Shown in pieces: positions 8,061 to 26,551 of a stretch of 32,000 bases of DNA. Where the stretch lies: assembly GCA_943789275.1 (NCBI GenBank), contig CALSTM010000002.1, forward strand, positions 630,001 through 662,000, written 5' to 3'. The notes under the pieces are model-generated. The model did no database searches and had not been told where the DNA came from. It was given only the letters and a program-made list of their open reading frames with translations. The stretch's first letter is position 1. The number at the start of each line of letters is the position of its first letter. The DNA comes from Candidatus Poseidoniaceae archaeon. Lineage in GTDB: Archaea > Thermoplasmatota > Poseidoniia > Poseidoniales > Poseidoniaceae. Position numbers and translations under genes: made by a program.

Positions 8061-10424
8061 ATGGGCCAAGGCAAGAAACGTAACAACCGTGGTTCAAAGA
8101 AGAACAAAAAAGGACCACAAATCTCTGATGTCGAGCGGTTATGGAAGCGTTTAGCGAGTCACTTTGCCGCCCAAGAAGAGTTGTGGAAGAAATCTTGGAG
8201 CAGTGAAGAAATTGCTACATTCCTTATCGATAAAGAAGACCTAGGCAAGCAATATGCTGGTGATTCTCGACCGGAACGGGTGTTTCGCAGTTCCATCGAT
8301 GAAACGATGGCACATGCCCGTGCAAAAAGCGAAAACTTCGTTCAAGTGGAAGACAAGAAGGTCCGGATTCGCAGTCCTGATGAAATCAAACGCATCAAAG
8401 AGGCTGTACTCGACTGGCAAGCATTCAGCGCAGTACACGCAACCAAAGGCTCGACCGGACTTCATGGTCGTCCAGCCCTCAGTGGCCCGGATGCTCCAGA
8501 AAACACCAGTGGAAGAGATGCTGAGAGATATTCACTGCTCGAAGAAGTTTGGCTGGCTCATCTGGGTGGACAAGATTACCCCTCCTCCTTCTCTCTGCTC
8601 CCGGACACAGTCGTCCGCACTTGGGGCACTTTCGATTTGGTAAAAGAAGCCCGATTTATCGCTAACAGGCGCTCAGGACTACGGTTTCGAGATGCTGAAC
8701 CCAGTATGGCATTGCTGCTGATACAATCTGGGCGGTTGAATGCACGCTCGCTGTTGGACTTGCGGCTCGAAAACAAACGCAAAGGCGGCTGGAATCCATT
8801 TCCCCGGACGTACGATGAGGCTCTGGTGGAATCTGCTGAACGGCTACCTGAAGTTGACGGTGAAGGTGAACTTTCCAATCATCGCAGTGACCTAAGACAC
8901 CTTCCGTTCGTAACCATTGACCCTCATGATGCAAAAGATTTCGACGATGCTGTTTGCTTGGTTGAGAAGGACGGTATCCGAACCCTTTGGGTCGCCATTG
9001 CTGATGTGGCTCATTATGTTGAGCCGGACACCCGTTTGGACACCGCCGCTCGCGCTCGGGCAACATCGGTCTACCTGCCGCACACCGTTCTCCCGATGCT
9101 GCCGCCACGGCTGGCCGATGACCTCTGTTCCCTGCGTGCTGGCGTTGACCGTCTTGCAATGGTTGTTTCAATGGAAATTGGCAACGACGATACCATCGTC
9201 GAATGCAAGGCGTTTGAAGCAGTGATTCGGGTTGTTGAAAACATGGCTTACGAAGATGCTTTGGACAATCCACGCTTTACCGACATGTTTGAACTGGCCG
9301 ATTCCTGGCAGAAAAAAGAAGTTCGCCTTAACATCCAAAATGCAGAACTCCGGCCTCGATTGCATGGTGACGAAAACATTCGAGTCGAAATCAAATGGCC
9401 AAACGCCGCCACACAAATGATCGAATCGTTCATGGTCGCAACCAATGCCTCAGTCGGGCATTTACTGGGTAAAGCCGGCGCACCGCTACCATGGCGTTGC
9501 CACACGCCGCCTGATGCCGTGGAAGTGGAAGAACTGAATGCAAAACTTTCAGCATTGGGCGTTAACATCGAACTGCCCCTTCCAAGTTATCGGACGCACG
9601 GCCAATCCGAAGAAGGTGAACTGGCAGACTTACTGGCAGGTTGGGCTGGCGGCTCAGTTGATGTTTCTGGGCTGGAGAGTGAAACAACAACCAGCAACGA
9701 CACGCCGGAATACCTGGACAGCGTCCTTGATGCTGATGCACGCCAGGAGATTCTCGATGCTCTGGATAAAGCTCAGGAGCAAGCCTCCGAACTCAAAGGA
9801 CCCGTTCGCAGAGTGGTGGACCAAGGATTGTTCCACCTCATGCAACGGGCCAGTTACAGTGAAGAAAATCTTGGTCATTTTGGGTTAAATCTCGATGCGT
9901 ATGTGCATTTCACCAGCCCGATTCGACGCTATCCCGACCTCATGGCACACCGGCAACTCAAAGCACACTTGCGAGCAGAGCAATGGGTTCATTCTCTCGA
10001 AGAAACGGCAAAAATAGCCAAACATTGCAGCGAACAAGGTCACACAGCCAAACGAATGGAGTGGGAACTTGTAGCGAATGCGTACCACCTACACTTGTTG
10101 CGCGGTGGGAAAATCGGAGGTGAAAGTTCTACAGAATCCACGCCCCTGGAACATACTTCGTGGCCCGCTCGAATTACCGGCTTGCGTACACCTTGGATTT
10201 TCCTTGACTTAGCAGACGATGGCGCAATTCACGGCCGGATGCATCTGCGCCAAATCGGTGGTAAAACCCAAATGAGCATCGACGAATATGGGCTTGCGGT
10301 CATACCAGCCGAACCAGATGCTCGAGGAGAACAAGAGCCGGTCGTTCAACTCGGCCAAAAATTCCCTTGCCGGTTGCGAGGCTTGGATGTATGGGCTGGC
10401 TCATTGGACCTCGCCCCACAGTAG
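8061..10424 (+). CDS. rnr: Ribonuclease R / RNase II family 3'-5' exoribonuclease
   Basis: 787 aa. RNB catalytic motifs are present (FVTIDPHDAKDFDDAVCL, LWVAIADVAHYV, SVYLPHTVLPMLP, HFGL...YVHFTSPIRRYPDL), followed by an S1-like C-terminus. It starts 8 nt after the J-protein stop, behind a GGTGG Shine-Dalgarno. Confidence 0.9.
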   Translation: MGQGKKRNNRGSKKNKKGPQISDVERLWKRLASHFAAQEELWKKSWSSEEIATFLIDKEDLGKQYAGDSRPERVFRSSIDETMAHARAKSENFVQVEDKKVRIRSPDEIKRIKEAVLDWQAFSAVHATKGSTGLHGRPALSGPDAPENTSGRDAERYSLLEEVWLAHLGGQDYPSSFSLLPDTVVRTWGTFDLVKEARFIANRRSGLRFRDAEPSMALLLIQSGRLNARSLLDLRLENKRKGGWNPFPRTYDEALVESAERLPEVDGEGELSNHRSDLRHLPFVTIDPHDAKDFDDAVCLVEKDGIRTLWVAIADVAHYVEPDTRLDTAARARATSVYLPHTVLPMLPPRLADDLCSLRAGVDRLAMVVSMEIGNDDTIVECKAFEAVIRVVENMAYEDALDNPRFTDMFELADSWQKKEVRLNIQNAELRPRLHGDENIRVEIKWPNAATQMIESFMVATNASVGHLLGKAGAPLPWRCHTPPDAVEVEELNAKLSALGVNIELPLPSYRTHGQSEEGELADLLAGWAGGSVDVSGLESETTTSNDTPEYLDSVLDADARQEILDALDKAQEQASELKGPVRRVVDQGLFHLMQRASYSEENLGHFGLNLDAYVHFTSPIRRYPDLMAHRQLKAHLRAEQWVHSLEETAKIAKHCSEQGHTAKRMEWELVANAYHLHLLRGGKIGGESSTESTPLEHTSWPARITGLRTPWIFLDLADDGAIHGRMHLRQIGGKTQMSIDEYGLAVIPAEPDARGEQEPVVQLGQKFPCRLRGLDVWAGSLDLAPQ

Positions 10425-10671: not shown

Positions 10672-12951
10672 ATGTCAACCGAATCGTTCGTTTTAGATGT
10701 AACAGGAATGACCTGTGCATCGTGCGTTGCATCGGTTGAGAAAGTGACGCTCCGTGCCGAACAGGTGGAGAGCGTTTCAGTGAACCTTCCCTTGCAACGC
10801 GCCGTTGTGAACGTGTCTTTAGACTCCAATGTTGAATCGACGAAAAGAAGCGTTATCGCTGCTCTTGAACGGAGTGGTTTTGGAGCCAAAGAGCATCGTG
10901 GCAGAACAACGATGATTGAGAATGCTCGAAAAGATTTACGCGCTCAATCACGGAAAGTAGTGCTCGCTTTGCTGATGGCTATACCCACTCTCTACCTCAG
11001 TATGTTTGCCGAGGATTTTGGTGAACTGAACGGCGTCAATACCCGTTTGTTGCTGGCTCTTGTCGGAACCGCTCCAGTCTATTTTTGGTCAGGATGGCAA
11101 TTTCATTCCAATGCTTGGAAAGCCTTGCGTTCAGGTTCGGCCAACATGGATGTGCTGATTCATTTAGGGACAAGTGTGGCCTTCCTTTGGTCAAGTTTGG
11201 TCACCTTATCGCCACTTCTCAGCATCCTACCGCCGGTATTCTCAAACTCAAGTCATGTATTCTTTGATGGAGTTGTATTCATCATCGGATTTGTGTTGCT
11301 CGGAAATTGGATGGAAGCAGGTGCCAAACTGAAAGCCACCGATGCAGTTCACGGTCTAATGGATTTACAACCAAAGCGAGCTCGCTTGGTCATCGATGAA
11401 GAACTTGGACATACCGATATGCAAGATGTCGCCGGAGTCCCGATTGGTTCGCTGATCAAAATTTTACTCGGCGAAACTGTTCCTCTCGACGGCGTAGTGC
11501 ACCAAGGAAAAGCCAGTATTGACACCTCAATGATGACCGGAGAACCTTACCCGGTTCGAAAGAAAGAAGGAGAACACGTCTCGGCAGGAACGCTCGTTCT
11601 CGATGGAACAATTCTCATCCGTACCACGCACAGTTCCGAAGATACCTTGCTTGCAAACATCATTCAACTGGTTGAGGATGCACAGATGGGCAAGGCCCCA
11701 ATACAACGGCTCGTCGACCGAGTTGCTTCGGTTTTTGTCCCCGTTGTCGTCGTGTTTGCGTTCACAGCGGCGATATTTTGGTGGCTGTATCCCGATTCAG
11801 CGTCGTACAATCCCATGGATTCAAATTTAGAATTGGCCATGATGGTGTTGGTGTCCACCCTCGTCATCGCTTGCCCGTGCGCTCTGGGCTTGGCTACACC
11901 GACAGCGTTGATTGTTGGCACAGGCGTAGGCGCCCGAAACGGATTGCTCATCAAAGGCATAGAAGCACTCGAACACGCCCACAGAGTTGACACGCTCATC
12001 GTCGACAAAACGGGGACGTTGACATCAGGAAAACCGCGAGTAAGCCATATTGAGTTGCTTGATTGCGAAGTGAAAGAAATTCTTTCCATTGCTGCTTCTC
12101 TTGAAGCCGAATCAACGCATCCTCTTGCGGACGCCATTCTCACCTCGTGGTCGAATGTGACCTCAACTCGCCCACAACTGACCGAAATCCAAACGCTTCC
12201 TGGGCTGGGGATGATTGGCGAAAAGGATGGCGCCTTAGTTGCGGTAGGTAACATCGAACTGATGGAAGAAATAGGTGTTCAAATCAGCGAAGAAATCTTC
12301 GGAAAGCTTAGTGCTGCTGCAACCAAAGGTGTTACGCTCGTGTTGGTAAGTCAAGGGTTGAAATTGCTTGGCTGGATTGAAGCACGGGACCGGATTCGTG
12401 AATCCACAGAAAAGGCTGTTCAAAGAGCCCAAAAAGCCGGTTATGACGTCATCATGTTGACCGGTGATCGAAAAGAGGCCGCTGAAACGGTCGCTCAAGA
12501 AGTTGGAATAAACACGGTTGTTGCCGGAGTGAAACCGGACCAGAAGGCTGCTCATGTTCAAGAGTTGCAAAATCAAGGGCGATACGTCGCCATGGTTGGA
12601 GATGGAATCAACGATGCAGCAGCTCTCTCTACCGCCCACGTGGGAATTGCTATGGGAGCGGGTTCAGACATCGCCATGGACGCTGCTGACTTTGTCTTGT
12701 TGAGAAACGACTTGATTGATGCTGTCTCCTCATTGGATCTTGGGAAGAGCACCATGCGCCGAATTCGAGTGAACCTTGGTTGGGCGTTTGTCTACAATGC
12801 AGTGGGAATTCCATTGGCCATGGGTATTGCGCTGCCATTCACCGGCGTCCTGCTCCCACCGGCTTTCGCTGCTGCAGCAATGTCGCTCTCGTCGGTCAGT
12901 GTAGTGGCAAATTCGCTGGTATTGCGCTGGTGGAGCCCCATCAGTGAATGA
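10672..12951 (+). CDS. copA: Copper-translocating P1B-type ATPase
   Basis: N-terminal HMA domain with GMTCASC, TGE loop (MMTGEP), CPC in a TM helix (VIACPCALGLATP), phosphorylation site DKTGTLT and hinge GDGINDAAAL. Confidence 0.95.
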   Translation: MSTESFVLDVTGMTCASCVASVEKVTLRAEQVESVSVNLPLQRAVVNVSLDSNVESTKRSVIAALERSGFGAKEHRGRTTMIENARKDLRAQSRKVVLALLMAIPTLYLSMFAEDFGELNGVNTRLLLALVGTAPVYFWSGWQFHSNAWKALRSGSANMDVLIHLGTSVAFLWSSLVTLSPLLSILPPVFSNSSHVFFDGVVFIIGFVLLGNWMEAGAKLKATDAVHGLMDLQPKRARLVIDEELGHTDMQDVAGVPIGSLIKILLGETVPLDGVVHQGKASIDTSMMTGEPYPVRKKEGEHVSAGTLVLDGTILIRTTHSSEDTLLANIIQLVEDAQMGKAPIQRLVDRVASVFVPVVVVFAFTAAIFWWLYPDSASYNPMDSNLELAMMVLVSTLVIACPCALGLATPTALIVGTGVGARNGLLIKGIEALEHAHRVDTLIVDKTGTLTSGKPRVSHIELLDCEVKEILSIAASLEAESTHPLADAILTSWSNVTSTRPQLTEIQTLPGLGMIGEKDGALVAVGNIELMEEIGVQISEEIFGKLSAAATKGVTLVLVSQGLKLLGWIEARDRIRESTEKAVQRAQKAGYDVIMLTGDRKEAAETVAQEVGINTVVAGVKPDQKAAHVQELQNQGRYVAMVGDGINDAAALSTAHVGIAMGAGSDIAMDAADFVLLRNDLIDAVSSLDLGKSTMRRIRVNLGWAFVYNAVGIPLAMGIALPFTGVLLPPAFAAAAMSLSSVSVVANSLVLRWWSPISE

Positions 12952-12981: not shown

Positions 12982-13194
12982 ATGGACCAAGCTGTACATG
13001 CCGTCTCTATTGCTGGAATGACGTGCGATGGGTGCTCCAGCAGAATCAATCGAGTTTTGGAATCAACTCCAGGAATTCTCAAGGCTGAAATCTCTCATTC
13101 CAAGGGTACTGGAAAAGTCACCACATCCGCTGAAATAACGATATCCACCGTGCTCCACATCATCAATTCAGCTGGATTTGAAGCACACGCTTGA
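12982..13194 (+). CDS. copZ: Copper chaperone, single HMA domain
   Basis: 70 aa, VSIAGMTCDGCSSRINRVLE..., a ferredoxin-like HMA fold with the MxCxxC motif. Lies immediately downstream of copA. Confidence 0.9.
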   Translation: MDQAVHAVSIAGMTCDGCSSRINRVLESTPGILKAEISHSKGTGKVTTSAEITISTVLHIINSAGFEAHA

Positions 13195-13235
13195 AGCGTT
13201 TCATTCAAATCCAAGAGGCGCCGCCATCAGTTTGC

Positions 13236-13319
13236 GCGGGGGTCGCCCAGCTTGGTCAACGGCGGTGGGTTTAGGTCCCATTCCTTATCGGTTCGCAGGT
13301 TCGAATCCTGCCCCCCGCA
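13236..13319 (+). tRNA. tRNA-Leu, anticodon UAG, with long variable arm
   Basis: Manual cloverleaf. Acceptor stem GCGGGGG/CCCCCGC. D-loop with GG. Anticodon stem GUGGG/CCCAU with loop UU-UAG-GU. 13-nt variable arm. T-arm GCAGG-TTCGAAT-CCTGC. Discriminator A. CCA is not encoded. Confidence 0.9.
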
Positions 13320-13535
13320 TCTCATTCAGTCATGCAGGTGAGAACCATGTGCACGCAGTGAACAAAGGTGAGAATCCTGCCCCCCGCATCTCATTCAGTC
13401 ATGCAGGTGAGAACCATGTGCACGCAGTGAACAAAGGTGAGAATCCTGCCCCCCGCATCTCATTCAGTCATGCAGGTGAGAACCATGTGCACGCAGTGAA
13501 CAAAGGTGAGAATCCTGCCCCCCGCATCTCATTCA
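13304..13535 (+). repeat. Perfect 69-bp tandem repeat (3 full units plus a 25-nt partial unit) that starts inside the tRNA-Leu T-loop
   Basis: AATCCTGCCCCCCGCATCTCATTCA occurs at 13304, 13373, 13442 and 13511. The 44-nt segment between copies, GTCATGCAGGTGAGAACCATGTGCACGCAGTGAACAAAGGTGAG, is identical in all three units. Confidence 0.95.
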
Positions 13536-13922
13536 AACAATTTTCTCAGCACGATTTAGAACCCATTCAAACAGGGAGTCAAGGCTCGGAGCCAATGCTT
13601 TCGCGTCTGAAGTCAATGAATATTCAACGGAAACAGGCACGGTTGGGTAGACCGTTCGAGTCACTAAACCGTGACCTTCCAACTCGCTCAAGCGCCGAGT
13701 AATGGTGGTCGAAGAAGTGCTTGCACGCTTTTTGAGTTCTGAAAACCGCAAGGGAGTCGAGTCACAGTTGAGAATGTATAAAATATTCAACATCTTTGAC
13801 TTCGATAACAGGACCAGTAAGTCATCCACTTGCGCTTTAGCAGAGTCGCACATCCCTTGCATTCGCTCATTTTGCTCTTTGGTCATGGAACGAGGCAGTA
13901 ACATTCTGTTATCAAGAGACAA
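13533..13922 (-). CDS. HxlR-family winged-helix transcriptional regulator
   Basis: LSKSKMLNILYILNCDSTPLRFSELKK....TITRRLSELEGHGLVTRTVYPTVPVSVEYSLT matches the HxlR signature. The true start may be an internal Met (about 13886). Its stop codon lies inside the last repeat copy. Confidence 0.85.
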   Translation of the reverse strand: MSLDNRMLLPRSMTKEQNERMQGMCDSAKAQVDDLLVLLSKSKMLNILYILNCDSTPLRFSELKKRASTSSTTITRRLSELEGHGLVTRTVYPTVPVSVEYSLTSDAKALAPSLDSLFEWVLNRAEKIV

Positions 13923-13994
13923 GTTACAACAGTGTTACAAGAAGTCACCTGTGCCACTTTCTCCCTTATGTACGGAAGGACACCCCCCCGCTCC

Positions 13995-15092
13995 ATGAGC
14001 AACGAATCTCAAGGCAAAATGATGAAAGCAATCGCATTCCAAAAATACGGCAAACCAACACTGTTGGAGAAAAAAGAAATCGCTTACCCATACGGGTTTG
14101 AAGTATCTTCCAACGTCGTCATTAAGGTTCATGCCTCCTCAATCAACCCAGTCGATAAAGCGCTTCTTGGTGGAGATTTGAAAATGGTCCGGCCAGTCGA
14201 TGCATTCCCACATGTGATTTCATACGATGTCGCAGGTATCGTTGAGCAAGCTGACGGGAAAGGTAAGTTCGAAGTTGGGCAAGCCGTATTCGCTCGAATC
14301 TTTGGACACTCCAGTGACGGTGCGAAAACCCCTTGGTACCGTGGTGCTATGGCTGAATACTGTGCGGTGCACACCTCCAACGTGGTCGCAAAGCCAGACA
14401 ACATCAGTTTCGAAGAAGCAGCATCCATCCCGTTGGTTGGAATGACTGCTCTACAGTCGCTCAAAACAGCAGGCCTCAAGGAAGGTGATTCAGTCTTTAT
14501 TTCCGGTGGAGCTGGCGGTGTTGGAACGATGGCCATTCAACTGGCGAAGCATGTGTTCAAGGCAAGTCGCGTTGTAACAACCGCTTCGAAAGGTGAGAAA
14601 GCCGACATGTGTAAAGCACTTGGTGCCGATGAAATTGTTGATTACAAATCACAAAACTTCGTCGAACTGTATTCGGCGGACAGCAAAAAGTTTGATGTCT
14701 GTTTTGACACGACCGCCGAAAGTCTCGACATGAGTAAAATTGTCAAGCAAGGCGGTAACATCGTGACGATTGCAGGCATGCCGACACTTGATGAAATACG
14801 ACGAATCGGAGGCACGGCTTGGATTCTCAAGTTGTTCTTGAAGCGAAAGGTAAAGCGAAAGGAGTACAAAGCTGCACTTGCAAACAACGCTTCATGGATG
14901 TACCTGTTCCTCTCCCCGAGTGCGGAAGACCTCACTGAACTTGCTAATCATCTCACCAACGGCACCATCAAGCCTGTTCTTGACGGAACTTGGGACTTTC
15001 ATTCAGAAGACGAACAAGCAGGATGGAACGGGGCTTTCACCCGCTCGTTCTCCGGACGAGCCAAAGGTAAGTGCGTTGTCAAGATGGTTTGA
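13995..15092 (+). CDS. Medium-chain dehydrogenase/reductase (quinone oxidoreductase / zinc-type alcohol dehydrogenase-like)
   Basis: KAIAFQKYGKP..., the GroES-like N-domain and Rossmann motif GGAGGVGTMAIQLAK. It is divergent from hxlR, a classic pairing. The ATG at 13995 lies about 26 nt from the TATA-like TTATGTAC (13966-13973). Alternative starts are 13932 and 14019. Confidence 0.85.
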   Translation: MSNESQGKMMKAIAFQKYGKPTLLEKKEIAYPYGFEVSSNVVIKVHASSINPVDKALLGGDLKMVRPVDAFPHVISYDVAGIVEQADGKGKFEVGQAVFARIFGHSSDGAKTPWYRGAMAEYCAVHTSNVVAKPDNISFEEAASIPLVGMTALQSLKTAGLKEGDSVFISGGAGGVGTMAIQLAKHVFKASRVVTTASKGEKADMCKALGADEIVDYKSQNFVELYSADSKKFDVCFDTTAESLDMSKIVKQGGNIVTIAGMPTLDEIRRIGGTAWILKLFLKRKVKRKEYKAALANNASWMYLFLSPSAEDLTELANHLTNGTIKPVLDGTWDFHSEDEQAGWNGAFTRSFSGRAKGKCVVKMV

Positions 15093-15427
15093 TCAGCAAA
15101 CATCAGTTGACTGCTGATTCGTTGTAAAGTGATGAGCACTCCTTTTTCCCCGAAACACAAAGTCGTTGATGCGGTGAGAAGAAGGCGTGAATCTCGATAC
15201 TTTGGCCTCATATGCAGAAATTATTGGCCTGATTACAATTCTTGGTGCTGCTGTTTACTCGTGGTTTCAAATTGGCAACCACCTGCTCGTTAATCGCTTG
15301 GGTACCCTTGCGTACACCCGTCGATACAGAGGGGGGCCCTTTGTATCAGTTGAAGAGTTTCTTTAGGATAAACATGTATAAATGAATTCTTTTTTATTAA
15401 TCAATAAAAATTAGGCGATTACTTGTT

Positions 15428-16219
15428 ATGGCTGCATTGCAACGAGAGATCATGGCCAGTCCAATTCTAAGCCCAGATGGGTTATGGGAATGGAATGGGG
15501 AGGAATGGATTCCCTACAAATTTGTACTTGACAACTATAATCACACTAATCTGTTTTTGGAACCCCCTCTCGCTCTATTTGATAAAGAAATAAAACCACA
15601 CCAGTCTATACAGCCAAATCCTTTACACAATATGATTGAACCCCCCCCTCTTCCTTCTCTCGGAAAAAAAGAAACAAAAATGGAGGTTAAAGAAGTTGAG
15701 AAATCTACAACAACACCAACTAACAATGTCAATGACTCAGGCGTATGGAGTAATCAACTTCAAACCTTACTTGGAATAATATTCGTTGTTGGAATACTGA
15801 TTTTTACACCGATTGTTAGTCAACATCAGACAATCGAAAATGGATTTAGTTTACCCAATGGTCAGAGGTATTTTTACGATATTGATTGTCCTGATGGATG
15901 TGAGATTCGAATTAATGTAACGGCAATGGCTTATGGTACATTAGAATTAATCACTGTAGAAGGGAGCGGATATAGATTATGTAATGGCGGCGTTTACTAT
16001 CCTTCCTTATCATCGCCAATCTATGGCGAAACTCATTTTGCAGAATTTTTAGAGCCAGGATCATACTCAATTATTTTTGATAATAGTGACTGTGGAAATG
16101 TTCCGGCTATAACTTACGGCGGTTTAGTGGTCTTTGAAATCACATTATGTAAACCAAAATTCACTGAAGCATCAATTGTTTCAAAATTACAATGTTTCGT
16201 TAAAGAGGAGATATTGTAA
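15428..16219 (+). CDS. Hypothetical single-pass membrane protein (263 aa)
   Basis: ATG ORF in the AT-rich islet. It has an N-terminal SPDGLWEWNGEEWIP motif, a Pro-rich linker and one TM (LLGIIFVVGILIFTPIV). The C-terminal domain is Cys-containing and beta-rich. No family was recognised. Confidence 0.6.
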   Translation: MAALQREIMASPILSPDGLWEWNGEEWIPYKFVLDNYNHTNLFLEPPLALFDKEIKPHQSIQPNPLHNMIEPPPLPSLGKKETKMEVKEVEKSTTTPTNNVNDSGVWSNQLQTLLGIIFVVGILIFTPIVSQHQTIENGFSLPNGQRYFYDIDCPDGCEIRINVTAMAYGTLELITVEGSGYRLCNGGVYYPSLSSPIYGETHFAEFLEPGSYSIIFDNSDCGNVPAITYGGLVVFEITLCKPKFTEASIVSKLQCFVKEEIL

Positions 16220-16300
16220 ATTTATCCTGATGCCTCGAGAAAATTTATTACTGCGTTTAAACAAGAAATAGCACCATCAACAAATTGATTCGGATAAGTT

Positions 16301-16337
16301 GCAAGGGGTTATCCGAAACCCCTTTGCATTTTATTTT
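16301..16337 (+). terminator. Hairpin plus T-tract downstream of the 15428-16219 ORF
   Basis: GCAAGGGG (16301-16308) pairs with CCCCTTTGC (16319-16327), followed by ATTTTATTTT (16328-16337). Confidence 0.4.
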
Positions 16338-16597
16338 CCCGATACAAAGGGGATTCAGTGGGCCGATACAGACGCTACCGATTCATCTGCTTCAAATCTC
16401 GTGAAGAACGCATTCATTCTCACTGCGAGTTAAATTATTCCAATTTAGGACGAAAACCGAAGTAGTCATTACCTCAACCTCGTCTGAAATGAATGCATCA
16501 GTGAGGGTCGGTGAAGGTTCTTCTTCTGCAGCTTGAGTTCTCTGTTGTATGTAAAATTTGAAGAAGTCTTATAATGAAATTCGATTGAGGTTTATCT

Positions 16598-17437
16598 ATG
16601 CTCAGAGCCTTTTATTGGCGCCTAAACTTGGGTTTTAAAAAAATAAAATCCAAGAGATTGAGGAAGAAGCTCGGCAACAATATCAAAGCCATAATCACAA
16701 ACAGTCAAAATGGGATTTTTGCAGTAGACCCCGAAGACCTTGAAGTCGGTCAAAAACTTCGCTCAGGCGGTTTCGGCCTTGAGGAAATTGCAAGATTAAG
16801 AAAATATATTGACAATGATTCAAACGTTTTAATCGTTGGAACACACATTGGGTCATTAGCGATACCACTTTCAAAACATTGTAAGGCAATTACCGCGATC
16901 GAAGCAAACCCAAAAACCTTCGAATTATTAGAGATAAATCTACATTTAAACAATATCGAAAACATAACCCCGCACAACATTTTTGCCAACGATTCTTCTG
17001 AAAAAGTAGAATTTTTACTTAACACAGTAAATTCTGGTGGAAGCAAAAGAAAACCAAAAAAGAGCAATTTCTTGTACGATTATGATAACCCTGAAGTCAT
17101 AGAATTGGAATCTCATCAACTTGATAATTATTTATCAGAACATAATTTTGACCTCATTCTGCTGGACATTGAGGGTTCTGAATATTTTGCCATGAAGGGT
17201 ATGAAAGAAATTCTATCCAATTGTAAAACATTAGTGGTTGAATTCTTACCTCACCACTTGAAAAATGTTGCAGATATTGATGTTGACACATTTATTTCAG
17301 CATTACCTCACCATTTCACTACGTTCCAACTACCAGATCATAATCAAGAACACAAAATTTCTGAAGTGAAAACAGTTTTACAAAAAATGTATGATTCAAA
17401 CATCGGTGAGGACGGAATAATTTTCACATCGAACTAG
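16598..17437 (+). CDS. FkbM-family SAM-dependent methyltransferase
   Basis: VLIVGTHIGSLAIPLSK..AITAIEANPKTFELLEINLHLNN...DLILLDIEGSEYFAMKGMKEIL matches the FkbM-type methyltransferase pattern. Confidence 0.75.
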   Translation: MLRAFYWRLNLGFKKIKSKRLRKKLGNNIKAIITNSQNGIFAVDPEDLEVGQKLRSGGFGLEEIARLRKYIDNDSNVLIVGTHIGSLAIPLSKHCKAITAIEANPKTFELLEINLHLNNIENITPHNIFANDSSEKVEFLLNTVNSGGSKRKPKKSNFLYDYDNPEVIELESHQLDNYLSEHNFDLILLDIEGSEYFAMKGMKEILSNCKTLVVEFLPHHLKNVADIDVDTFISALPHHFTTFQLPDHNQEHKISEVKTVLQKMYDSNIGEDGIIFTSN

Positions 17438-17494
17438 AATTTAATCTGAATAGAACGGCTCAACATTATAGCAAGCCTCCCTCTCACACAACAC

Positions 17495-18721
17495 ATGGCT
17501 AACCTCCAAAGAAAACGTCTTCTGTTAGTCAAAGGCTCTTTCGAACACTTTGGTGGCGGAGAAAGAGATCTCATCAACAACCTCGAAGCATGGTCAAAAT
17601 ATTTTGATTTGAGTATAGCAACCTTACACCCCCACGAAGAATTAAGAGAGAAACTCAATGAACTCAACATCCCTTTATTTTCTCCAATTGAAAATTGGTC
17701 GTATTCACACGGAACGCTTTCAGAAATTTTTGCTAAATCTACAAAGAAAGCATCTCAGAAATGGTATTCAATGCTGTCTCTCACAAAACAAGGAGTGGGT
17801 TTAACCACCTTATTTTCAAATATCGATGCGGTTAATATTACAACTGGAATGGCATCCTTGGAAATCCTCCCATTCATACCAAAAAATATCCCCCTCCACA
17901 CATACATGCACGAACCGAACAGAGGACTGCACAGCAACGACCTCCATTTCGATATAGATGGAAAACCAAAACAGAATTTAAAAATTACAAATTTGTTTTT
18001 ATCTAAACAGAGACGAATTGACGAAAAATTAGTCGAACTCGCAGCGAAGAGAGGAAAAATAAGTGGCAATTCCAAGTATACTTGTGAAAGGATACAACAA
18101 GTGTATGGCATTGAGTCAAACTTTCTTTATCCAAGTATCAATACAAAATTATGGCCAATAAAACCATCAAAAGATGAAGACTGGAATGCTGTTAAAAAAG
18201 AGTTCAATCTCACACAGAATCAATACATCATCACTATTGGACATGCAATTTATGCCAAAGGTCTTTGGCAAACAATAGAGAATCTAAACTCTTCAAAGTT
18301 AACAATAGTGCAAATCGGCGGCGGGGTCACGGACAGACATCATCAACATGCCAAAACGAATAACGTTGAACTCATAGCCCTACCAAGAGTGAGTCAAGCA
18401 ACAATTCGAGTATTGATGAGAAATGCAAAAGCGATGGTCAGCAACGCTATCAACGAACCGTTTGGACTCACTCCGCCCGAATCATACTTTGTCGAGTGCC
18501 CAGTCATTGTTTCGAATCAAGGGGGATTTAGAGAAACCGTAGTTGATGGTATCACTGGCAGACTTCTCAACCAAGGAGATGATTGGATCTCAGCTATTGA
18601 GGAAGGCCACATGAAGAGAAAAAAGTGGTCAAAGGCCGGAAGAGAACACATCGAGAAAATAGACCTCACTCCAGAAACACAAGCCAAAAAAGTGTATGAT
18701 TTACTCACGCAAACCTCTTGA
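17495..18721 (+). CDS. Glycosyltransferase, GT4 (GT-B fold) family
   Basis: C-terminal signature NEPFGLTPPESYFVECPVIVSNQGGFRETVVDGITGRL (EX7E-type motif of retaining GT4 enzymes). Confidence 0.85.
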   Translation: MANLQRKRLLLVKGSFEHFGGGERDLINNLEAWSKYFDLSIATLHPHEELREKLNELNIPLFSPIENWSYSHGTLSEIFAKSTKKASQKWYSMLSLTKQGVGLTTLFSNIDAVNITTGMASLEILPFIPKNIPLHTYMHEPNRGLHSNDLHFDIDGKPKQNLKITNLFLSKQRRIDEKLVELAAKRGKISGNSKYTCERIQQVYGIESNFLYPSINTKLWPIKPSKDEDWNAVKKEFNLTQNQYIITIGHAIYAKGLWQTIENLNSSKLTIVQIGGGVTDRHHQHAKTNNVELIALPRVSQATIRVLMRNAKAMVSNAINEPFGLTPPESYFVECPVIVSNQGGFRETVVDGITGRLLNQGDDWISAIEEGHMKRKKWSKAGREHIEKIDLTPETQAKKVYDLLTQTS

Positions 18722-18746
18722 TGAAACAAGGAGGAGTGCCGTCTTT

Positions 18747-19046
18747 ATGAATACAAATCAAATACGTGCAGCCAAAGCGCTCTACATGCGCTTGGAATGG
18801 CCCGTCTATGCATTTACTGCCAGTGTGTTCCTTTCCTTCGCTCTTGGCGTTCAATTCCTCTCCATTGGAACCGGTGCCGTTGTTGGCCTGTTTGTCCTGC
18901 TGACTGTAGCCTACGCATGGGTTGCCTGGGTGATGGTCAAGCAAAAAGCCGTCCTCGAACTTCACGCCTACATCCCCTGCTCTGCGTGCGGTGAGTTGAC
19001 GCCTTCACAAGGTAAGCATTGCATGAACTGCGGCGCCAACTTGTAA
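18747..19046 (+). CDS. Hypothetical membrane protein with a C-terminal zinc ribbon (99 aa)
   Basis: The ATG at 18747 is preceded by GGAGGAG. There are two hydrophobic helices, then CSACG...HCMNCG. The upstream part of the tracked ORF (from 18696) overlaps the GT4 gene and was discarded. Confidence 0.55.
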   Translation: MNTNQIRAAKALYMRLEWPVYAFTASVFLSFALGVQFLSIGTGAVVGLFVLLTVAYAWVAWVMVKQKAVLELHAYIPCSACGELTPSQGKHCMNCGANL

Positions 19047-19064
19047 TCAGGCGTGGGAGCCCAA

Positions 19065-21512
19065 TTAATTCGAAAGGTCTTTGATTTTTTCAATCAGGTC
19101 CATTCGGCGAAGTCGCCAAACGCCGAAGGGCGTCATGGCTACAGCGATGAGAATGACGCCGGACATCAGCTGCCATGCTACGCTTGGAACAATGGTCACT
19201 GGAACGAAGAACTGCCACGAAGAGAACGAAGCAGCAAGTCCTACTGCCCCTCCATAGGCAAACAGAACACCGACAATACCGCCGATGATTCCAATCAAGA
19301 GACTCTCAAACAGAAGCATAACGCCTAGACTGCGAGTAGATGCCCCAAGAACGCGTAGAGTTGCCAGTTCAAAGTCACGCTCAGCCACGTTCATGATCAT
19401 CGTATTGAACATGACAACGACCGTGAACAGAAGTCCGAGGTACATCATGGTCTGGAAAATTTGAGTTTGTTGGTCGAGTAAACTGTTGATGCCATCGAGA
19501 AGGGTTTGTCGTTCCACAATTCCCGTTGAAGCCTCTCCCAAAGCCGAATCAACCACAACGCCATTGGGTAGGTCGAGGTAAATCGAAGTCGCATTGACTC
19601 CAAGAATACCGCTCAAATCATCTCGGACAAAATACATCGTACGAGCTAATTCTGCTGTCGAAGTCCCGACAATTTCCACATCTTGTGGTGCTCCGTTAAT
19701 GCTCACTGTGCGTTGGTCTCCAACCTGCCAGTCAAGGAATTTCATGCTCCCCTCGTCCATCATCACCTTGGGGATGGCTGAGTTTGCGGTTGGAGTGTCT
19801 CCGGCAAGTACTGAAACTGAACGCATGCCATTATCAAACGAATCAAGCCCTACAAGCGTGAATATTCTGTCAATTCCATCCCCATCCGCAACTGAACCAA
19901 GTGGCATTTCAATTATCATCTCATACGAGGCGGAATTGTTGTTGGCCCAATCAACGACTGGGCCTTCGGCCTCTGGCATGATGTAGACTTGTGCATCCCA
20001 TGTTTGGTCGTCTTCCAGGCCTCCAACCATCGTATCTTGGAGTCCAGCAGACATCATTTGAATCGAGCCGAAAAGCATCAATGAGATTCCTACAGCTACA
20101 AAAGTCATCGTTAGACGGATTGGCTTACGCACGCTTGAGCGAATAGAAAGTCCAAGCGTTGTTGGCATCCATGAAGTGAGTTTTCGCAGCAGGTTTGACC
20201 CCACTCGCATTTCGTTTTGACCACTGAGAACTGCTAACGGGTCAAGGCGGCTCGCCTTCCACGCTGGGAATGCTCCAGAGAAGAACACGACAATCATGGT
20301 GGAACTTACAACGGATACAAGAACCGAGAACGGTACTGTTCGTTCAACAATCGGTACGCCAACCAAATCTTGGTAGAAATCCAACATCCCATTCATGCCC
20401 ATGGGCCCAGCTAACGCTCCAAGAGCACAACCGATTCCTCCAATCACCAATGGAGCAGCGAGATAGCCAGTCATGAGCGAGGAGCGTTTGACGCCCAGTG
20501 TTCGTAGCACTGCAATCTCCTTTGCTTGACTTTGAACCAAGCGTTGAAGGCTGAGGACAATGGTGATGGCGGCGATTGAGGCAATCATGACGGTAAACGG
20601 AACGGTTGTTCGCTCGGTTCCCTCCAAATCCTGTCGCATGACTTCAACGGGTTCGTTCTGTCCGCGGTCCCGTACCCGTGCATCAAGTTCAGATTCAGCA
20701 AGAGCGGTATCAACCAACGTCTTCACAGCGTCAATTTCATCTCCTTCATACTCGCTGGTGTCGGGTAAATCAAACGATGGAGTTCCTTCGACATCCAACA
20801 TGATGATGTTGCTAGCGCCAATGACTTCGCCAGTAAGACGAGCCATTCCAGCATCAGAGAGGTAACCCACGACGTATTGACCTGGTTCAGGAGGGAACAG
20901 CGTTCCTTCAGGCGCCATGAGCACATGCAGTGGATGGTACCCCGTACCTACAAGCGTGAAATCGGCAGTTGCATTTCCCGCTCCAATACTTATTGTATCC
21001 CCAAGACTGAGTTCAAGCGCTTCAGTGACGTGCGCATCGATGACAATCTCGTCAGCAGTCACTGCAGTTCGACCTTCTGAGTGCCCTTTAGGCATCCAAA
21101 CGCGGTCGGCATTTGCATCGTCAGGGATGCCGTGCCATAGAGAATTGATGATGTGCTGGCCGGTATCGTTGGTGTGGAACATCGCACCTTGGGTTACGGT
21201 ACGCCCTTCGCATGAATCAAGAGATGGAGAAACCGTTGAGGAAGCCCAAGCAGTCCCCAGTGCAGCACAGAAGGAATTGACTTGTTCCGGCGTCCAAGAA
21301 GTACTTCGATTGTCAATCCAAAGGTCTGCAAGGTTGGCGCCGCTTTCGTCATCGGCTTGCATGGTATCGTACATGCCACCGAGATTGTATGCATAACCGC
21401 CAAAGGTTATGCCAGCAAAAACGCCGACAAACACCATGAGAATTACGGCAGAAAGTCGAAGTTTGGTTCGCCATAAACTTCGGGCTAAGCGTTTGTTGAG
21501 AAGAGCAGACAT
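19065..21512 (-). CDS. ABC transporter permease, duplicated FtsX/MacB-type with large extracytoplasmic domains
   Basis: 815 aa. There are two FtsX-like 4-TM modules, each preceded by a long loop. The N-terminus LRLSAVILMVFVGVFAGI is typical of this family. It starts 9 nt after the ATPase gene. Confidence 0.85.
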   Translation of the reverse strand: MSALLNKRLARSLWRTKLRLSAVILMVFVGVFAGITFGGYAYNLGGMYDTMQADDESGANLADLWIDNRSTSWTPEQVNSFCAALGTAWASSTVSPSLDSCEGRTVTQGAMFHTNDTGQHIINSLWHGIPDDANADRVWMPKGHSEGRTAVTADEIVIDAHVTEALELSLGDTISIGAGNATADFTLVGTGYHPLHVLMAPEGTLFPPEPGQYVVGYLSDAGMARLTGEVIGASNIIMLDVEGTPSFDLPDTSEYEGDEIDAVKTLVDTALAESELDARVRDRGQNEPVEVMRQDLEGTERTTVPFTVMIASIAAITIVLSLQRLVQSQAKEIAVLRTLGVKRSSLMTGYLAAPLVIGGIGCALGALAGPMGMNGMLDFYQDLVGVPIVERTVPFSVLVSVVSSTMIVVFFSGAFPAWKASRLDPLAVLSGQNEMRVGSNLLRKLTSWMPTTLGLSIRSSVRKPIRLTMTFVAVGISLMLFGSIQMMSAGLQDTMVGGLEDDQTWDAQVYIMPEAEGPVVDWANNNSASYEMIIEMPLGSVADGDGIDRIFTLVGLDSFDNGMRSVSVLAGDTPTANSAIPKVMMDEGSMKFLDWQVGDQRTVSINGAPQDVEIVGTSTAELARTMYFVRDDLSGILGVNATSIYLDLPNGVVVDSALGEASTGIVERQTLLDGINSLLDQQTQIFQTMMYLGLLFTVVVMFNTMIMNVAERDFELATLRVLGASTRSLGVMLLFESLLIGIIGGIVGVLFAYGGAVGLAASFSSWQFFVPVTIVPSVAWQLMSGVILIAVAMTPFGVWRLRRMDLIEKIKDLSN

Positions 21513-21521
21513 GCGAAAACC

Positions 21522-22244
21522 TCACTCTGAAGAATCGTTGTTCGTCTGTTCATCCGAGACAATTTTTCCGCTGTCAATTCGGATCACTCGGGTCGCATAC
21601 TTGACCAAACCCTCATCGTGCGTAACGAACACTGAAGTGATGTTTTCTTGCTTGCATGCACTCACCAGCGCTTCCATGACTTTGTTTGAAGTCTCGGTGT
21701 CAAGGTTACCGGTGAGTTCATCACCAAGCAGGAGAGTTGGACGCTTCGCAATGCTTCGAGCAATCGCTACACGCTGTTGTTGTCCACCGCTGATTTCACC
21801 TGGGAAACGGTCGACTTCGGCTTCAAGGCCGACGAGTTTCAACAATTCTTTCGCCCGGGTAGGGTCTTTTTTACCTGCTAATTCTTGAATGAGGAGAATG
21901 TTCTCAAGTACTGTGAGGTCTTGCAGGAGATTGAAGAATTGGAACACATAGCCAATGTTTTCTCTTCGGAAAGAAGTCATTTTCTCAGAACTATTTCGGG
22001 GGACTGCATCCAAACCTCCCGTTTGTTTGGACATGAAGGTGTACTCGCCGCCGGTTGGACTGTCAAGGGCTGAAAGGCAATTGAGAAGCGTGGTTTTCCC
22101 AGAACCAGAAGGGCCCAGAAGAATCACACGTTCACCTTCATGGATTTCGAAACTGACACCGTCAAGCGCTTTGACAACGCCTGCAGGTGTTTCGTAATGC
22201 CGTTCTAGGTTTTCCATTTGTAATAATTTATTCATTTTCTTCAC
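21522..22244 (-). CDS. ABC transporter ATP-binding protein (MacB/LolD-like)
   Basis: Walker A GPSGSGKTT, signature ISGGQQQRVAIAR, Walker B LLLGDELTGNLD and an H-loop VTHD. Confidence 0.95.
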   Translation of the reverse strand: MKKMNKLLQMENLERHYETPAGVVKALDGVSFEIHEGERVILLGPSGSGKTTLLNCLSALDSPTGGEYTFMSKQTGGLDAVPRNSSEKMTSFRRENIGYVFQFFNLLQDLTVLENILLIQELAGKKDPTRAKELLKLVGLEAEVDRFPGEISGGQQQRVAIARSIAKRPTLLLGDELTGNLDTETSNKVMEALVSACKQENITSVFVTHDEGLVKYATRVIRIDSGKIVSDEQTNNDSSE

Positions 22245-22867
22245 CTTCTTGCTTCAAAGAGTTGTTTAAACATCTCAAAGAACTTGTCAGCCACTTGTGA
22301 TTCACTTACATGCCCCTCTTGCGTTTCATGCATCAGCCACACCTCATATTCCGTGTTCATGCGAACGAGTACATGGAGTGGGACATCATCACGGATCGCC
22401 CCGATCTCTACCCCGTGTTCGAGAATGGACATAAAATCAGCATACTCGCTCAAGCCCTCACATTCTGTGTTCAACTTACGGAAAAGGGGGTGGTCAGTCC
22501 CCATTGAAACCAATTGACGAATGAGGGACATCTGGATAGGATGCTGAAAAACGTCATTCCACTGCTTTGATGACAACCTCTTGATTGAATCCCAATATGT
22601 GGCTTTGTCCTCCGTCAACGGAAAGGAAGCCTTTGCAAAACCAAAACCTCCTGTGGCATCTGTAAAAGAATGCATAAAGCACGTGATGAACAAGTCTTCT
22701 TTGTTTTCAAAGTAATAGTACATCGAACCTTTGGAGATGCCTATTTTTTGAATGATTTTGTTGTACGAAGCGCCTTCAAAGCCAAGTGCAGCGAACTCTT
22801 GCTTGGAAACATCAAGAATCCTCGTTTTGAGGGACTCGTCAATGGATTCATAGCGTGCGAGAGGCAT
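22241..22867 (-). CDS. TetR/AcrR-family transcriptional regulator
   Basis: N-terminal HTH FEGASYNKIIQKIGISKGSMYYYFENKEDLF. Its stop overlaps the ATPase start (ATGA), so the three genes form one operon. Confidence 0.9.
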   Translation of the reverse strand: MPLARYESIDESLKTRILDVSKQEFAALGFEGASYNKIIQKIGISKGSMYYYFENKEDLFITCFMHSFTDATGGFGFAKASFPLTEDKATYWDSIKRLSSKQWNDVFQHPIQMSLIRQLVSMGTDHPLFRKLNTECEGLSEYADFMSILEHGVEIGAIRDDVPLHVLVRMNTEYEVWLMHETQEGHVSESQVADKFFEMFKQLFEARR

Positions 22868-26000: not shown

Positions 26001-26551
26001 ACGCCGATGCTGATGGAGATGGGTTCCTGAACGAGGATGAAATATTGGCTGGAACGCTACCTCTCGATGAAACATCTTTCCCTGCAAACAGGCTTCCAAC
26101 ATGTTCCCTGTACTACTCGCTTGAAGCAGATGGCATGCCGACGAGCTTTGAAGGAGATGCGGTCATTCCTGCTCTTTCTGGCGTGACTGCACAAGCCGGT
26201 ATAGACTCAATCGTTCCGTCGACAGTCACGATACCATCGGGAAGTTACTTCATTACTGCGCACTGTATTGACCTTGACGGCGATGATATCACCGTTACCG
26301 TGAACGACATTACCATCGGACCTGTTGCTGGGGAAGTGAGTGCTGCCGCTCTTATCGTCATCGGAGAGAACGTAAGTGAAACCGTCGATGTAACCATCAC
26401 ATGGACAGACGGCTCTGATACGCTCATGACGATGGTAACCATCGAGATGGAAAGCGATTCTACATCCATAATCCCTGGATTTGGTGTACTCTTAGGGTTG
26501 AGTGCACTTCTGCTCGCAGGGCTTGCATCTTGTAGAAAACATGAGAATTGA
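23028..26551 (+). CDS. Large cell-surface protein: signal peptide, three ~261-aa tandem repeats, thrombospondin-type-3-like Ca-binding repeats and a PGF-CTERM anchor. The reading frame is interrupted by a 1-nt frameshift near 23966.
   Basis: Signal peptide MKTTKMIGIVMTLIMLTATTVPVLAGA. ORFs 23028-24218 and 23984-26551 carry the same repeat in different frames. DxDxDG motifs are present (DFDGDGVYDKDDICDD, SDGDGDGFD, DYDNDGTCDLLDADADGDGF). The C-terminus is STSIIPGFGVLLGLSALLLAGLASCRKHEN. The start is ambiguous (23028, 23037 or 23052). Confidence 0.8.
23257..25190 (+). repeat. Near-identical long tandem DNA repeats (periods 785 and 783 bp) inside the surface-protein gene
   Basis: ATTGGGAACTGTGTTTCGCTGCTTACAACAATTG occurs at 23257, 24042 and 24825. 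Long stretches are identical base for base between units (for example 23400-23960 against 24185-24745). Unit 3 diverges after about 25183. Confidence 0.95.

Follow-up and report, generated by a model that had tools for sequence, protein, structure and literature searches.

Repeats that follow the tyrT tRNA genes of Escherichia coli have reportedly been studied since Egan and Landy in 1978, Rossi et al. in 1981 and Bosl and Kersten in 1991. In our repeat analysis of E. coli K-12 (NC_000913.3 1285500-1288500; L124) the tRNA-Tyr gene tyrV is followed by 3.14 copies of a 178-bp unit with 95% matches. Each rtT unit ends in an exact 19-nt copy of the tRNA 3' end (AATCCTTCCCCCACCACCA) and the annotated 171-nt small RNA (sRNA) rttR reaches exactly to the first pseudo 3' end of the array. 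PMC3318445, citing Bosl and Kersten 1991, describes rttR as a single repeat unit belonging to the tyrT operon. In 5426 complete genomes of E. coli 0-4 RtT copies are annotated and the locus span changes in ~178 bp steps, so the tyrT-rtT locus is itself a variable-number tandem repeat (VNTR). Here we describe an archaeal array with tRNA 3' ends in each unit. It lies behind the tRNA-Leu(UAG) gene of a Candidatus Poseidoniaceae archaeon, within a stretch of 32,000 nt (GCA_943789275.1, contig CALSTM010000002.1, positions 630,001 to 662,000) that we refer to as the window.

Duplicated tRNA ends are also known from mobile elements. The islands recognised by Islander have a regenerated tDNA together with a displaced fragment of it, the T-stem region being the commonest attP site class (PMC4383910). 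Tycheposons can accrete in tandem as elements separated only by partial tRNAs (bioRxiv 10.1101/2020.12.28.424599), and casposons choose the 3' ends of tRNA-Leu genes, where they leave target duplications in which CGCA is followed by an AT-rich tail and can insert in tandem with one duplication in common (PMC4779613). We found no description of the present tRNA-Leu array locus in the literature. Our comparison of the window with related contigs suggests that the array is probably a DNA-level minisatellite, or VNTR, that arose on the 3' end of tRNA-Leu(UAG) in marine Poseidoniaceae (Marine Group IIa, MGIIa).

Anatomy of the array

The tRNA-Leu(UAG) gene is the sole tRNA of the window and was called by both ARAGORN and Rfam (RF00005, 48.5 bits against a gathering score of 29). 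The array behind it consists of 3.38 copies (3.4 according to Tandem Repeats Finder, TRF) of a 69-bp unit with 100% matches, no indels and a score of 466 (Table 1). Minisatellites consist of head-to-tail units of 10-100 bp, and the indel-free period of 69 bp lies within this range. An earlier annotation made from the sequence alone, the original prediction, had described both the tRNA and the perfect array as we find them, and had counted four copies of a 25-nt string at 69-bp spacing. The four copies and their spacing hold while the repeated core, GAATCCTGCCCCCCGCATCTCATTCA (0 matches expected in shuffles), proved one base longer; since it takes up 26 nt of the 69-bp unit, the filler between cores measures 43 nt and not the 44 nt first given. 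Read against the tRNA, the core starts with the last four bases of the T-loop (positions 4-7) and goes on through CCTGC (3' strand of the T-stem), CCCCCGC (3' strand of the acceptor stem) and the discriminator A73 into 9 nt of trailer, so that each unit repeats the last 17 nt of the tRNA and then the trailer. The 9-mer AGGTGAGAA occurs twice per unit with a spacing of 30 nt. As had been stated, the last copy overlaps the stop codon of the convergent hxlR gene, whose TGA (13533-13535) lies inside the terminal core. The claimed absence of mutations is true of the window haplotype but not of other contigs, whose units carry single-nucleotide polymorphisms and indels.

Several other identities of the array were considered and rejected. 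One frame is open throughout, but it is broken by the indel-bearing units of other lineages, and the 145-aa and 174-aa open reading frames (ORFs) placed across the array by gene callers are spurious. C/D-box RNA, K-turn, ORB replication origin, dif site and REP/IS200-type repeat were discarded for want of their defining boxes, symmetry or dispersed copies (sequence reading; Rfam). Each unit also contains a Shine-Dalgarno-like AGGTGA followed after 5 nt by ATG and a 4-codon ORF (M-C/F/S-T-Q-stop; 13336-13363, again at +69 and +138). The hypervariable dinucleotide of the array is codon 2 of this ORF, which is probably meaningless. No repeat array was found behind the one other tRNA present in the fetched loci.

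Copy number and unit order within the species

Alleles were sampled by an exact look-up of the 70-aa chaperone encoded upstream of the tRNA, which gave 10 contigs of the same species (L001-L010) with flanks 99.5-99.9% identical. Together with further contigs of the same and related Poseidoniaceae, about 30 independent contigs from NCBI metagenome-assembled genomes (MAGs), ENA, JGI and Logan carry 0, 1, 2, 3 or 5 units, which bears out the variation between strains that the original prediction had proposed to look for. L007 has no unit at all: with flanks 99.8% identical, its trailer runs directly into AACAATTTT and hxlR. One unit is present in L004 and L006, two in L001-L003, L005, L093 and L101, three in the window, L008 and L009, and five in L010. 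A single sample (ERZ10646678) holds three alleles of 3, 3 and 5 units, each with different island cassettes. The full series of 0, 1, 2, 3 and 5 units occurs among contigs of one species, and copy-number polymorphism of this kind is a mark of minisatellites.

The units differ in sequence as well as in number. A hot spot in the filler reads GTGCACG (G), GTTCACG (T) or GTTTACG (TT), and some cores read GATTCC. Along the array the filler variants follow each other in different orders in different contigs (GGG in the window; elsewhere GTT, TGT, G-T-G-x-T, TG and TT-G), a shuffling that argues for unequal exchange.

Short-read contigs with an exact HxlR or chaperone match often break off within the tRNA or shortly after the hxlR stop codon, as expected at a polymorphic repeat; we take the array to be real and hard to assemble. 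One further contig, L099 (OBOY01000131.1, 1-8968), is 59-75% identical to the window before the tRNA and 99.6% identical from the tRNA onward, with 5 perfect units. It represents either an island transfer between species with its breakpoint in the tRNA or a chimeric assembly at the invariant tRNA.

Concerted evolution in other lineages

Lineages were sampled by a genome scan for HxlR, a metagenome scan with a filler 22-mer and look-ups of chaperone homologues, the last of which are free of ascertainment by the 22-mer. At least five lineages, with upstream coding flanks 59-99% identical to the window, have the 69-bp unit after this tRNA. The lineage of L102, L092, L097 and L013 (77% upstream coding identity) has 1 to at least 2 units and the private change GAACTAAGG; in L013 two private changes are common to both units. 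In that of L096, L095, L098 and L100 (69%), which has 2 units and no hxlR downstream, the tRNA and all cores carry C67>T, giving a G6.U67 wobble. L046, L119 and L120 (86%) have 1 or 3 units, and all of their downstream cores read GAATCTTGG..., unlike the tRNA; CTTGG replaces CCTGC in all three downstream cores of L120. L112, L113 and L115 (98.6%, the same species on the left) have 3 or 1 fillers and an 8-nt pseudo-core end followed by different genes, and L012 (hxlR 89% identical at the amino-acid level) has at least 1 unit, which is decayed. An 85-bp spacer in L046 was considered as a decayed extra unit and rejected in an alignment test.

Units thus cluster by lineage and not by position, which implies concerted evolution, and together with the interspersed variants this is again what is seen in minisatellites. 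Core changes in the T-loop (GATTCC) are absent from the tRNA itself. The C67>T change indicates, as far as sequence comparison goes, that the functional tRNA 3' end can join the homogenisation where a change is tolerated, here as G6.U67.

Conservation and folding of the filler

Across lineages the filler is more conserved than the flanking genes, to a degree comparable with a 60-nt promoter block upstream of the tRNA. The L096 lineage, with a coding flank only 69% identical, matches a window-species variant at 43 of 43 filler positions (P 1e-7), and the L102 lineage (77%) at 42 of 43 (P 2e-4); after conditioning on the 22-mer used in the scan these values become ~4e-4 and ~0.03, by our calculation.

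A 47-nt segment of the unit, picked after the fold had been seen, forms a hairpin in the consensus fold of 10 natural unit variants. The filler GCAGG pairs with CCTGC of the next core, which is the T-stem sequence of the tRNA, and the helix encloses ACC/GGT and an inner palindrome that is imperfect in the window (TGTGCAC-GCA-GTGAACA) and a perfect 7-bp one in the commonest variant (TGTTCAC-GCA-GTGAACA). The invariant AGGTGAGAA motifs lie in the internal loop. The 47-mer of the commonest (T) variant folds at -17.6 kcal/mol (z -4.1, 0/200 shuffles as good), the G variant of the window gives z -1.9, and because of the palindrome the hairpin folds equally on the minus strand (z -3.5). No covariation was detected among the 10 unit variants (0/15 pairs compensatory, covariation term +0.33), so the compensatory support that marks a structured RNA was not found, and stem pairs are broken in several natural variants including all three window units. 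The whole unit and the 325-nt putative transcript of the window fold no better than shuffles (z -0.5 to +0.7), and the whole T-variant unit gives z -1.95. The minimum-free-energy fold suggests that additional cores may vie with the tRNA's own 3' end for the acceptor 5' strand. The unit has no acceptor 5' strand (GCGGGGG) and therefore offers no tRNA-like minihelix to RNase Z or the CCA enzyme. At the DNA level, a unit that forms a hairpin would promote slipped mispairing.

The array as the border of a flexible island

In every locus the array is found at the tRNA-proximal edge of a flexible genomic island, and the DNA past the last core varies between lineages and within the species. The window and L102 have hxlR at this point, with an alcohol dehydrogenase (ADH) gene next in the hxlR-ADH arrangement. 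In L096 and L098 the place is taken by a 169-aa ORF together with the gene of a TSP3-repeat protein of 1204 aa. L112, which matches the window at 98.6% in its left flank, encodes a small secreted protein there, and L094 encodes membrane proteins. Homology to the window restarts only at the FtsX/ABC genes (window 19069-22249); its loss between the last core and this point defines the array as the tRNA-proximal border of the island. Depending on the lineage, 26, 17 or 8 nt of the terminal core are retained before synteny is lost. In the window the island holds hxlR, a Zn-ADH gene, a strain-variable cassette (15305-16374), genes for a methyltransferase and a GT1 glycosyltransferase and a variable tail (18737-19064), with a low GC content of 0.36-0.44 at 15001-19000. 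Within the species the variation falls on the cassette and on the DNA after 18736.

The cassettes themselves have some order. When L001-L010, L096 and L112 are compared with the window, each strain has its own gene set between the ADH and the conserved methyltransferase/GT1 pair; in one strain, L006, a serine recombinase (12062-12850) lies inside the island at 7.5 kb from the array. A dispersed element of ~95 nt (...GATTCGGATAAGTTGCAAGGGGTTATCCGAAACCCCTTTGCATTTTATTTTCCGATACAAAGGGGATTCAGTGGGYCGATACAGACGCTA) occurs in both orientations with up to 3 copies per 8 kb and is 83-97% identical across Poseidoniales species whose HxlR is only ~68% identical. The element contains a stem of 8 bp (CCCCTTTG/CAAAGGGG) and matches no Rfam family, and its 3' end in the window is the right end of the strain-variable cassette. 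The cassette of L007 and L010 (acyltransferase, fatty-acid hydroxylase, MBOAT; no transposase) is flanked by ~31-nt imperfect inverted repeats, GGTAGGGACGAATAGGGCCGACTGCAATCCC, and other island cassettes end in the related ...TCGCAGTGGGT.CTATACGTCG, the boundary falling before CTACC. From their sequences, these structured ends look like those of an organised cassette-exchange system.

Search for a mobile source of the first duplication

The locus has two of the features by which Islander recognises integration, namely an intact tDNA with displaced direct 3' fragments (three further exact copies, 17 nt + 9 nt) and an unoccupied site in a close relative, the latter in the single contig L007. The other two were not found: no integrase or element lies between the repeats, as only 43 bp separate the cores in place of element-sized DNA, and no attP was recovered on a free or elsewhere-located element. 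The original prediction was right that there is no integrase nearby, for none is present in the window, and none was seen beside the array in ~30 related loci. A distal copy of the core (<= 2 mismatches in 17 nt) is missing within 10 kb in every locus.

An att model predicts attP as ...AAAGGTGA + core + GTCATGCAGG..., but no attP-like copy of the filler was found outside this locus in IMG/VR, INPHARED, PLSDB or the JGI metagenomes. Both filler halves are without an exact match in IMG/VR, where the tRNA 3' 22-mer and the 17-nt core returned only unrelated viral coding DNA of 56-58% GC and a high-GC uncultivated virus genome (UViG); the number of 17-nt core matches there is about that expected by chance (our estimate from pattern length and collection size). 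The filler 22-mer occurs in the JGI metagenomes only at this tRNA, and a blastn query made of the tRNA end and one unit matched the bacterial phages and plasmids of INPHARED and PLSDB through the tRNA end only. The attP candidates on mobile elements that had been proposed as a check thus did not appear in the viral and plasmid collections searched. Since no mobile source was found, an att-scar origin is plausible by anatomy only.

We also considered the filler as a decayed tRNA copy or an hxlR fragment and rejected both, as local alignments do not rise above shuffles. Degenerate T-arm-like pieces had been noticed in the filler before; the first 12 nt, GCAGGTGAGAAC, agree with the 5' half of the T-arm, GCAGGTTCGAAT, at 9/12 positions (P ~0.04 by shuffling), which lends weak support to this observation, but the alignment of filler and tRNA is not above chance.

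Flanking genes and transcription

The genes around the locus in the window encode ribosomal proteins L10, L1 and L11, Spt5-NGN, DnaJ, an RNase R-like protein, CopA, the CopZ-like chaperone, HxlR and Zn-ADH. The 60-nt block directly upstream of the tRNA is identical at 50-60 of its 60 positions where the coding flanks are only 59-86% identical, and keeps 54-55/60 in the lineages with 69% and 77% coding-flank identity; its conservation suggests that it is the putative tRNA promoter region. Archaeal RNA polymerase terminates at oligo-dT. The (+) strand of the array has no oligo-T, and because none occurs from the tRNA to 13541, read-through from the tRNA promoter across the array is likely. The pre-tRNA would then probably carry the array as a long 3' trailer.

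The 9-mer TCATTCAAA is found at 13203-13211, ~25 nt upstream of the tRNA within the promoter block, and again directly 3' of the tRNA in the empty allele L007 (13322-13328 plus AA), so that the tRNA gene is bracketed by a short direct repeat. This may be due to chance, as we estimate that ~0.2 such pairs are expected. Elsewhere in the window (23257-25263) there is a tandem triplication with spacings of 785 and 783 bp and 300-nt blocks 90-94% identical. It falls within the overlapping long ORFs 23028-24218 and 23984-26551, neither with a Pfam match, and the 785-bp spacing shifts the frame between copies.

Table 1. Positions of the tRNA gene, the repeat units and associated features (window coordinates unless a contig is named)
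Feature	Position	Strand	Evidence or remark
tRNA-Leu(UAG) gene, 84 nt, no encoded CCA	13236..13319	+	ARAGORN, Rfam RF00005
69-bp tandem array in full, 3.38 copies; opens with the 17 nt that end the tRNA itself	13303..13535	+	TRF, repeat search
Core copy 1, T-loop GAAT to A73 plus trailer TCTCATTCA, within the functional tRNA	13303..13328	+	
Filler 1, 43 nt, GTCATGCAGGTGAGAACCATGTGCACGCAGTGAACAAAGGTGA; missing from empty allele L007	13329..13371	+	
Core copy 2, pseudo 3' end, pseudo-A73 at 13388	13372..13397	+	
Filler 2	13398..13440	+	
Core copy 3, pseudo-A73 at 13457	13441..13466	+	
Filler 3	13467..13509	+	
Core copy 4, terminal core, pseudo-A73 at 13526; last 3 nt complement the hxlR stop; lineage synteny ends at its 3' end	13510..13535	+	
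47-nt hairpin-forming segment	13334..13380, 13403-13449, 13472-13518	.	Consensus fold, 10 natural unit variants
copZ-like HMA chaperone gene, 70 aa, conserved left flank	12982..13194	+	Used to sample alleles and lineages
Conserved promoter-proximal block, overlapping the last copZ-like codons	13176..13235	+	Sequence conservation
hxlR-family regulator gene, 117 aa, convergent, first island gene in the window lineage	13533..13886	-	PF01638, E 2.6e-16
First T4 run 3' of the tRNA, sole oligo-T candidate terminator	13541..13544	+	Sequence reading
Flexible genomic island, between array and FtsX gene	13536..19064	.	Gene content, strain comparison
~95-nt element copy	16275-16379	+	
~95-nt element copies, other contigs	L021 2062-2164, 6250-6346; L025 132-209, 2555-2633; L035 4473-4569; L040 209-312; L112 4513-4616; L115 3021-3123; L002, L004, L005, L009		
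Structured cassette ends	15305-15350, 16350-16379		
Structured cassette ends, other contigs	L007 5965-5995, 11495-11523; L010 5661-5690, 9831-9859; L008 ~9385-9417		

Discussion

The mechanism behind such a minisatellite is ordinary, namely unequal recombination or slippage between repeats of 26-69 bp. An old event may have set a second copy of the last 17 nt of the tRNA and the 9-nt trailer 43 bp downstream, either as an attL/attR-type scar of an integrative element that was later mostly deleted or, by analogy with E. coli tyrT, through a partial tandem duplication of the tRNA gene. We regard integration followed by deletion and partial duplication as equally open. The comparison shows what followed: the 26-bp direct repeats, and later whole 69-bp units, misalign in homologous recombination or replication, unit numbers rise and fall between 0 and at least 5, and variants are shuffled between positions. 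The cores of a lineage are homogenised, and the functional tRNA 3' end can be drawn in when it tolerates the change (G6.U67). Selection on the tRNA would halt this homogenisation inside the T-loop, which could explain why identity begins at GAATCC. The DNA joined to the last core, at its end or inside it, differs. Of the explanations offered in the original prediction, an excision scar amplified by unequal crossing-over is the best fit, as copy numbers of 0-5, interspersed variants, concerted cores and the empty site of L007 all speak for the amplification; for the excision part, neither integrase nor attP nor distal core was found in the collections searched. Its fallback, simple slippage alone, leaves the origin unaccounted for, since the empty site lacks the filler.

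Several points weigh against a minisatellite of this kind. Copy numbers come from short-read assemblies and are uncertain, the zero-copy allele is one contig only and the 5-unit count of L099 is possibly chimeric. The integration route in particular is burdened by the negative searches for an integrase, a distal core and an attP-like filler, and the filler shows no significant likeness to the tRNA or its flanks. The T-variant hairpin folds better than any of its shuffles. A purely neutral minisatellite fails to explain the conservation of the filler, which exceeds what is expected of a neutral satellite. If the 69-bp unit were a selected tRNA-linked module, be it an archaeal counterpart of RttR or a hairpin primary recombination site of the island cassette-exchange system, the near-invariant filler beside neighbour genes only 69-77% identical would be accounted for; we hold this to be an unlikely reading.

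One form of it takes the units as a functional RNA co-transcribed with tRNA-Leu, a hairpin ending in an acceptor 3' strand that tRNA-maturation factors would process or bind, as RttR is released from the tyrT transcript, with selection keeping the filler constant. Small RNAs with tRNA-like ends had already been suggested in the original prediction, and they find support in the E. coli precedent of rttR ending at the first pseudo tRNA 3' end, in an array (+) strand free of oligo-T, in a filler conserved above the coding flanks and in the T-stem-closed 47-nt hairpin with its z of -4.1 in the commonest variant. This hairpin is, however, a segment chosen post hoc that folds equally well on the minus strand; natural variants break its stem without covariation, and the whole unit and transcript fold like shuffles. 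The acceptor 5' strand is missing from the unit, a zero-copy allele exists and copy number is free, and the RtT covariance model (RF00391) gives the window 14.5 bits (E 4.9) where the gathering score is 45, so that the array is no member of this family. On balance we doubt that the units act as such an RNA. That the array or its copy number was made by the assembler, the outcome that the original prediction had named as fatal to it, is very improbable. A perfect 233-bp repeat of 69 bp does exceed usual k-mers, many short-read contigs break here and L099 looks chimeric, but the array was recovered independently in ~30 contigs (NCBI MAGs, ENA, JGI, Logan), position-specific variants provide unique paths and there are lineage-specific unit sequences.

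The cores could instead still serve as att-type sites, for a transient element or for a recombinase whose gene lies elsewhere, the array growing as each event leaves a core and arm remnants. An array of attB sites had been proposed before, and the last core does lie exactly where lineage synteny breaks, which is indirect support; no element was caught using the cores. Four unrelated downstream contexts, also within one species, show the loss of synteny at the end of the last core or inside it, and the identity extends from the T-loop to beyond the end of the tRNA; the T-stem region forms the commonest Islander attP class. Tycheposons offer a model for tandem accretion with partial tRNAs, and the island has cassettes with inverted-repeat ends and, in one strain, a serine recombinase. 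Such continuing use is nevertheless quite unlikely in our view: no integrase adjoins the tRNA in ~30 loci, no second core stands at the far end of any island, no attP is present in any collection searched, the fillers are identical and not differing remnants, and the breakpoints differ (8, 17 or 26 nt of core). A replacement of the island by homologous recombination, acting between the tRNA and the FtsX/ABC flank, accounts for the same pattern. Duplication of a Cas1 type, by a casposon or a CRISPR-like process that would copy the tRNA end at each insertion of short DNA, has the least to recommend it. Casposons do target tRNA-Leu 3' ends with CGCA and an AT-rich tail (PMC4779613), and the core ends in CGCATCTCATTCA, but target duplication leaves the 12 nt of identity before CGCA unexplained. 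Casposons would bring terminal inverted repeats (TIRs), a solo Cas1 and PolB; the ends of the filler are not inverted repeats (sequence reading) and no Cas1 or PolB was found in the window or the loci. The spacers are identical, as is not the case in CRISPR arrays, the window has no cas genes and Rfam no matching CRISPR repeat (CRISPR-DR) family. With TIRs and Cas1 missing, this reading is effectively refuted.

The array is a second, independent example, this time in Archaea, of the almost forgotten tyrT/rtT architecture, and a second case suggests that tRNA 3' ends recurrently seed satellites. It is also a case where the homogenisation of a minisatellite appears to reach a functional tRNA gene, as an acceptor-strand C>T is common to the tRNA and all cores. 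In practical terms the locus provides a precise VNTR marker with which strains of an abundant uncultured marine archaeon can be typed, and it fixes the left border of the archaeon's flexible island precisely, which should aid the study of island exchange. It is at the same time a warning for assembly, since contigs break or may become chimeric at the array.

Comparison with known systems

With the target duplications of casposons the array shares an archaeal tRNA-Leu 3' end, CGCA with an AT-rich tail and the precedent of tandem insertions. It differs from them in the lack of TIRs, Cas1 and PolB, in a 26-nt duplication with 12 nt before CGCA and in an insert of 43 bp. The likeness to tRNA islands and tycheposons is closer: a direct repeat of the tRNA 3' end from the T-arm, a position at the edge of a variable island, an unoccupied site and a pile-up of partial tRNAs. 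It departs from those systems in that only 43 bp lie between its repeats, the inserts are identical, an integrase is missing and no fragment marks the far end of the island; its units are homogenised like a satellite and do not decay. Prokaryotic minisatellites and VNTRs have the same head-to-tail units, copy polymorphism, interspersed variants, concerted evolution and a hairpin-forming unit that could favour slippage. Unlike them, the array ends inside an essential-type tRNA gene, so that the 3' end of a gene can be rewritten, and its unit is conserved across lineages far beyond neutral DNA.

The nearest counterpart is tyrT-rtT. The tyrT-tyrV spacer and the rtT units of E. coli contain pseudo-T-arms with the loop GTGAGAA or ATGAGAA (GAAGGGTGAGAACCTTC), and we noted a 10-mer, GGTGAGAACC, that is common to these and to the archaeal filler, following the T-stem 5' strand in both (chance ~0.05, our estimate). 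The sub-threshold RtT match is no evidence of homology, yet it pointed to the right analogue. In both loci a tRNA gene is followed by about 3 head-to-tail units that each end in the exact tRNA 3' end, the T-loop position from which the copies match is the same (AATCC...), a segment that can base-pair with the 3' strand of the T-stem lies upstream of the pseudo 3' end, and copy number varies (0-4 RtT in E. coli, 0-5 units here). The E. coli unit is 178 bp long and its copy has CCA, an 8-bp pairing (GGGGAAGG/CCTTCCCC) and a tRNA-like helix, whereas the 69-bp unit has only the 5-bp T-stem. In E. coli a processed sRNA and a small ORF (tpr) are annotated, while the archaeal array has no known RNA product, sits at an island border and has neither sequence nor structure homology to rtT. 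Taken together, the array has the same architecture as tyrT/rtT, built on a shorter and different unit outside the RtT family and placed at the border of a flexible island.

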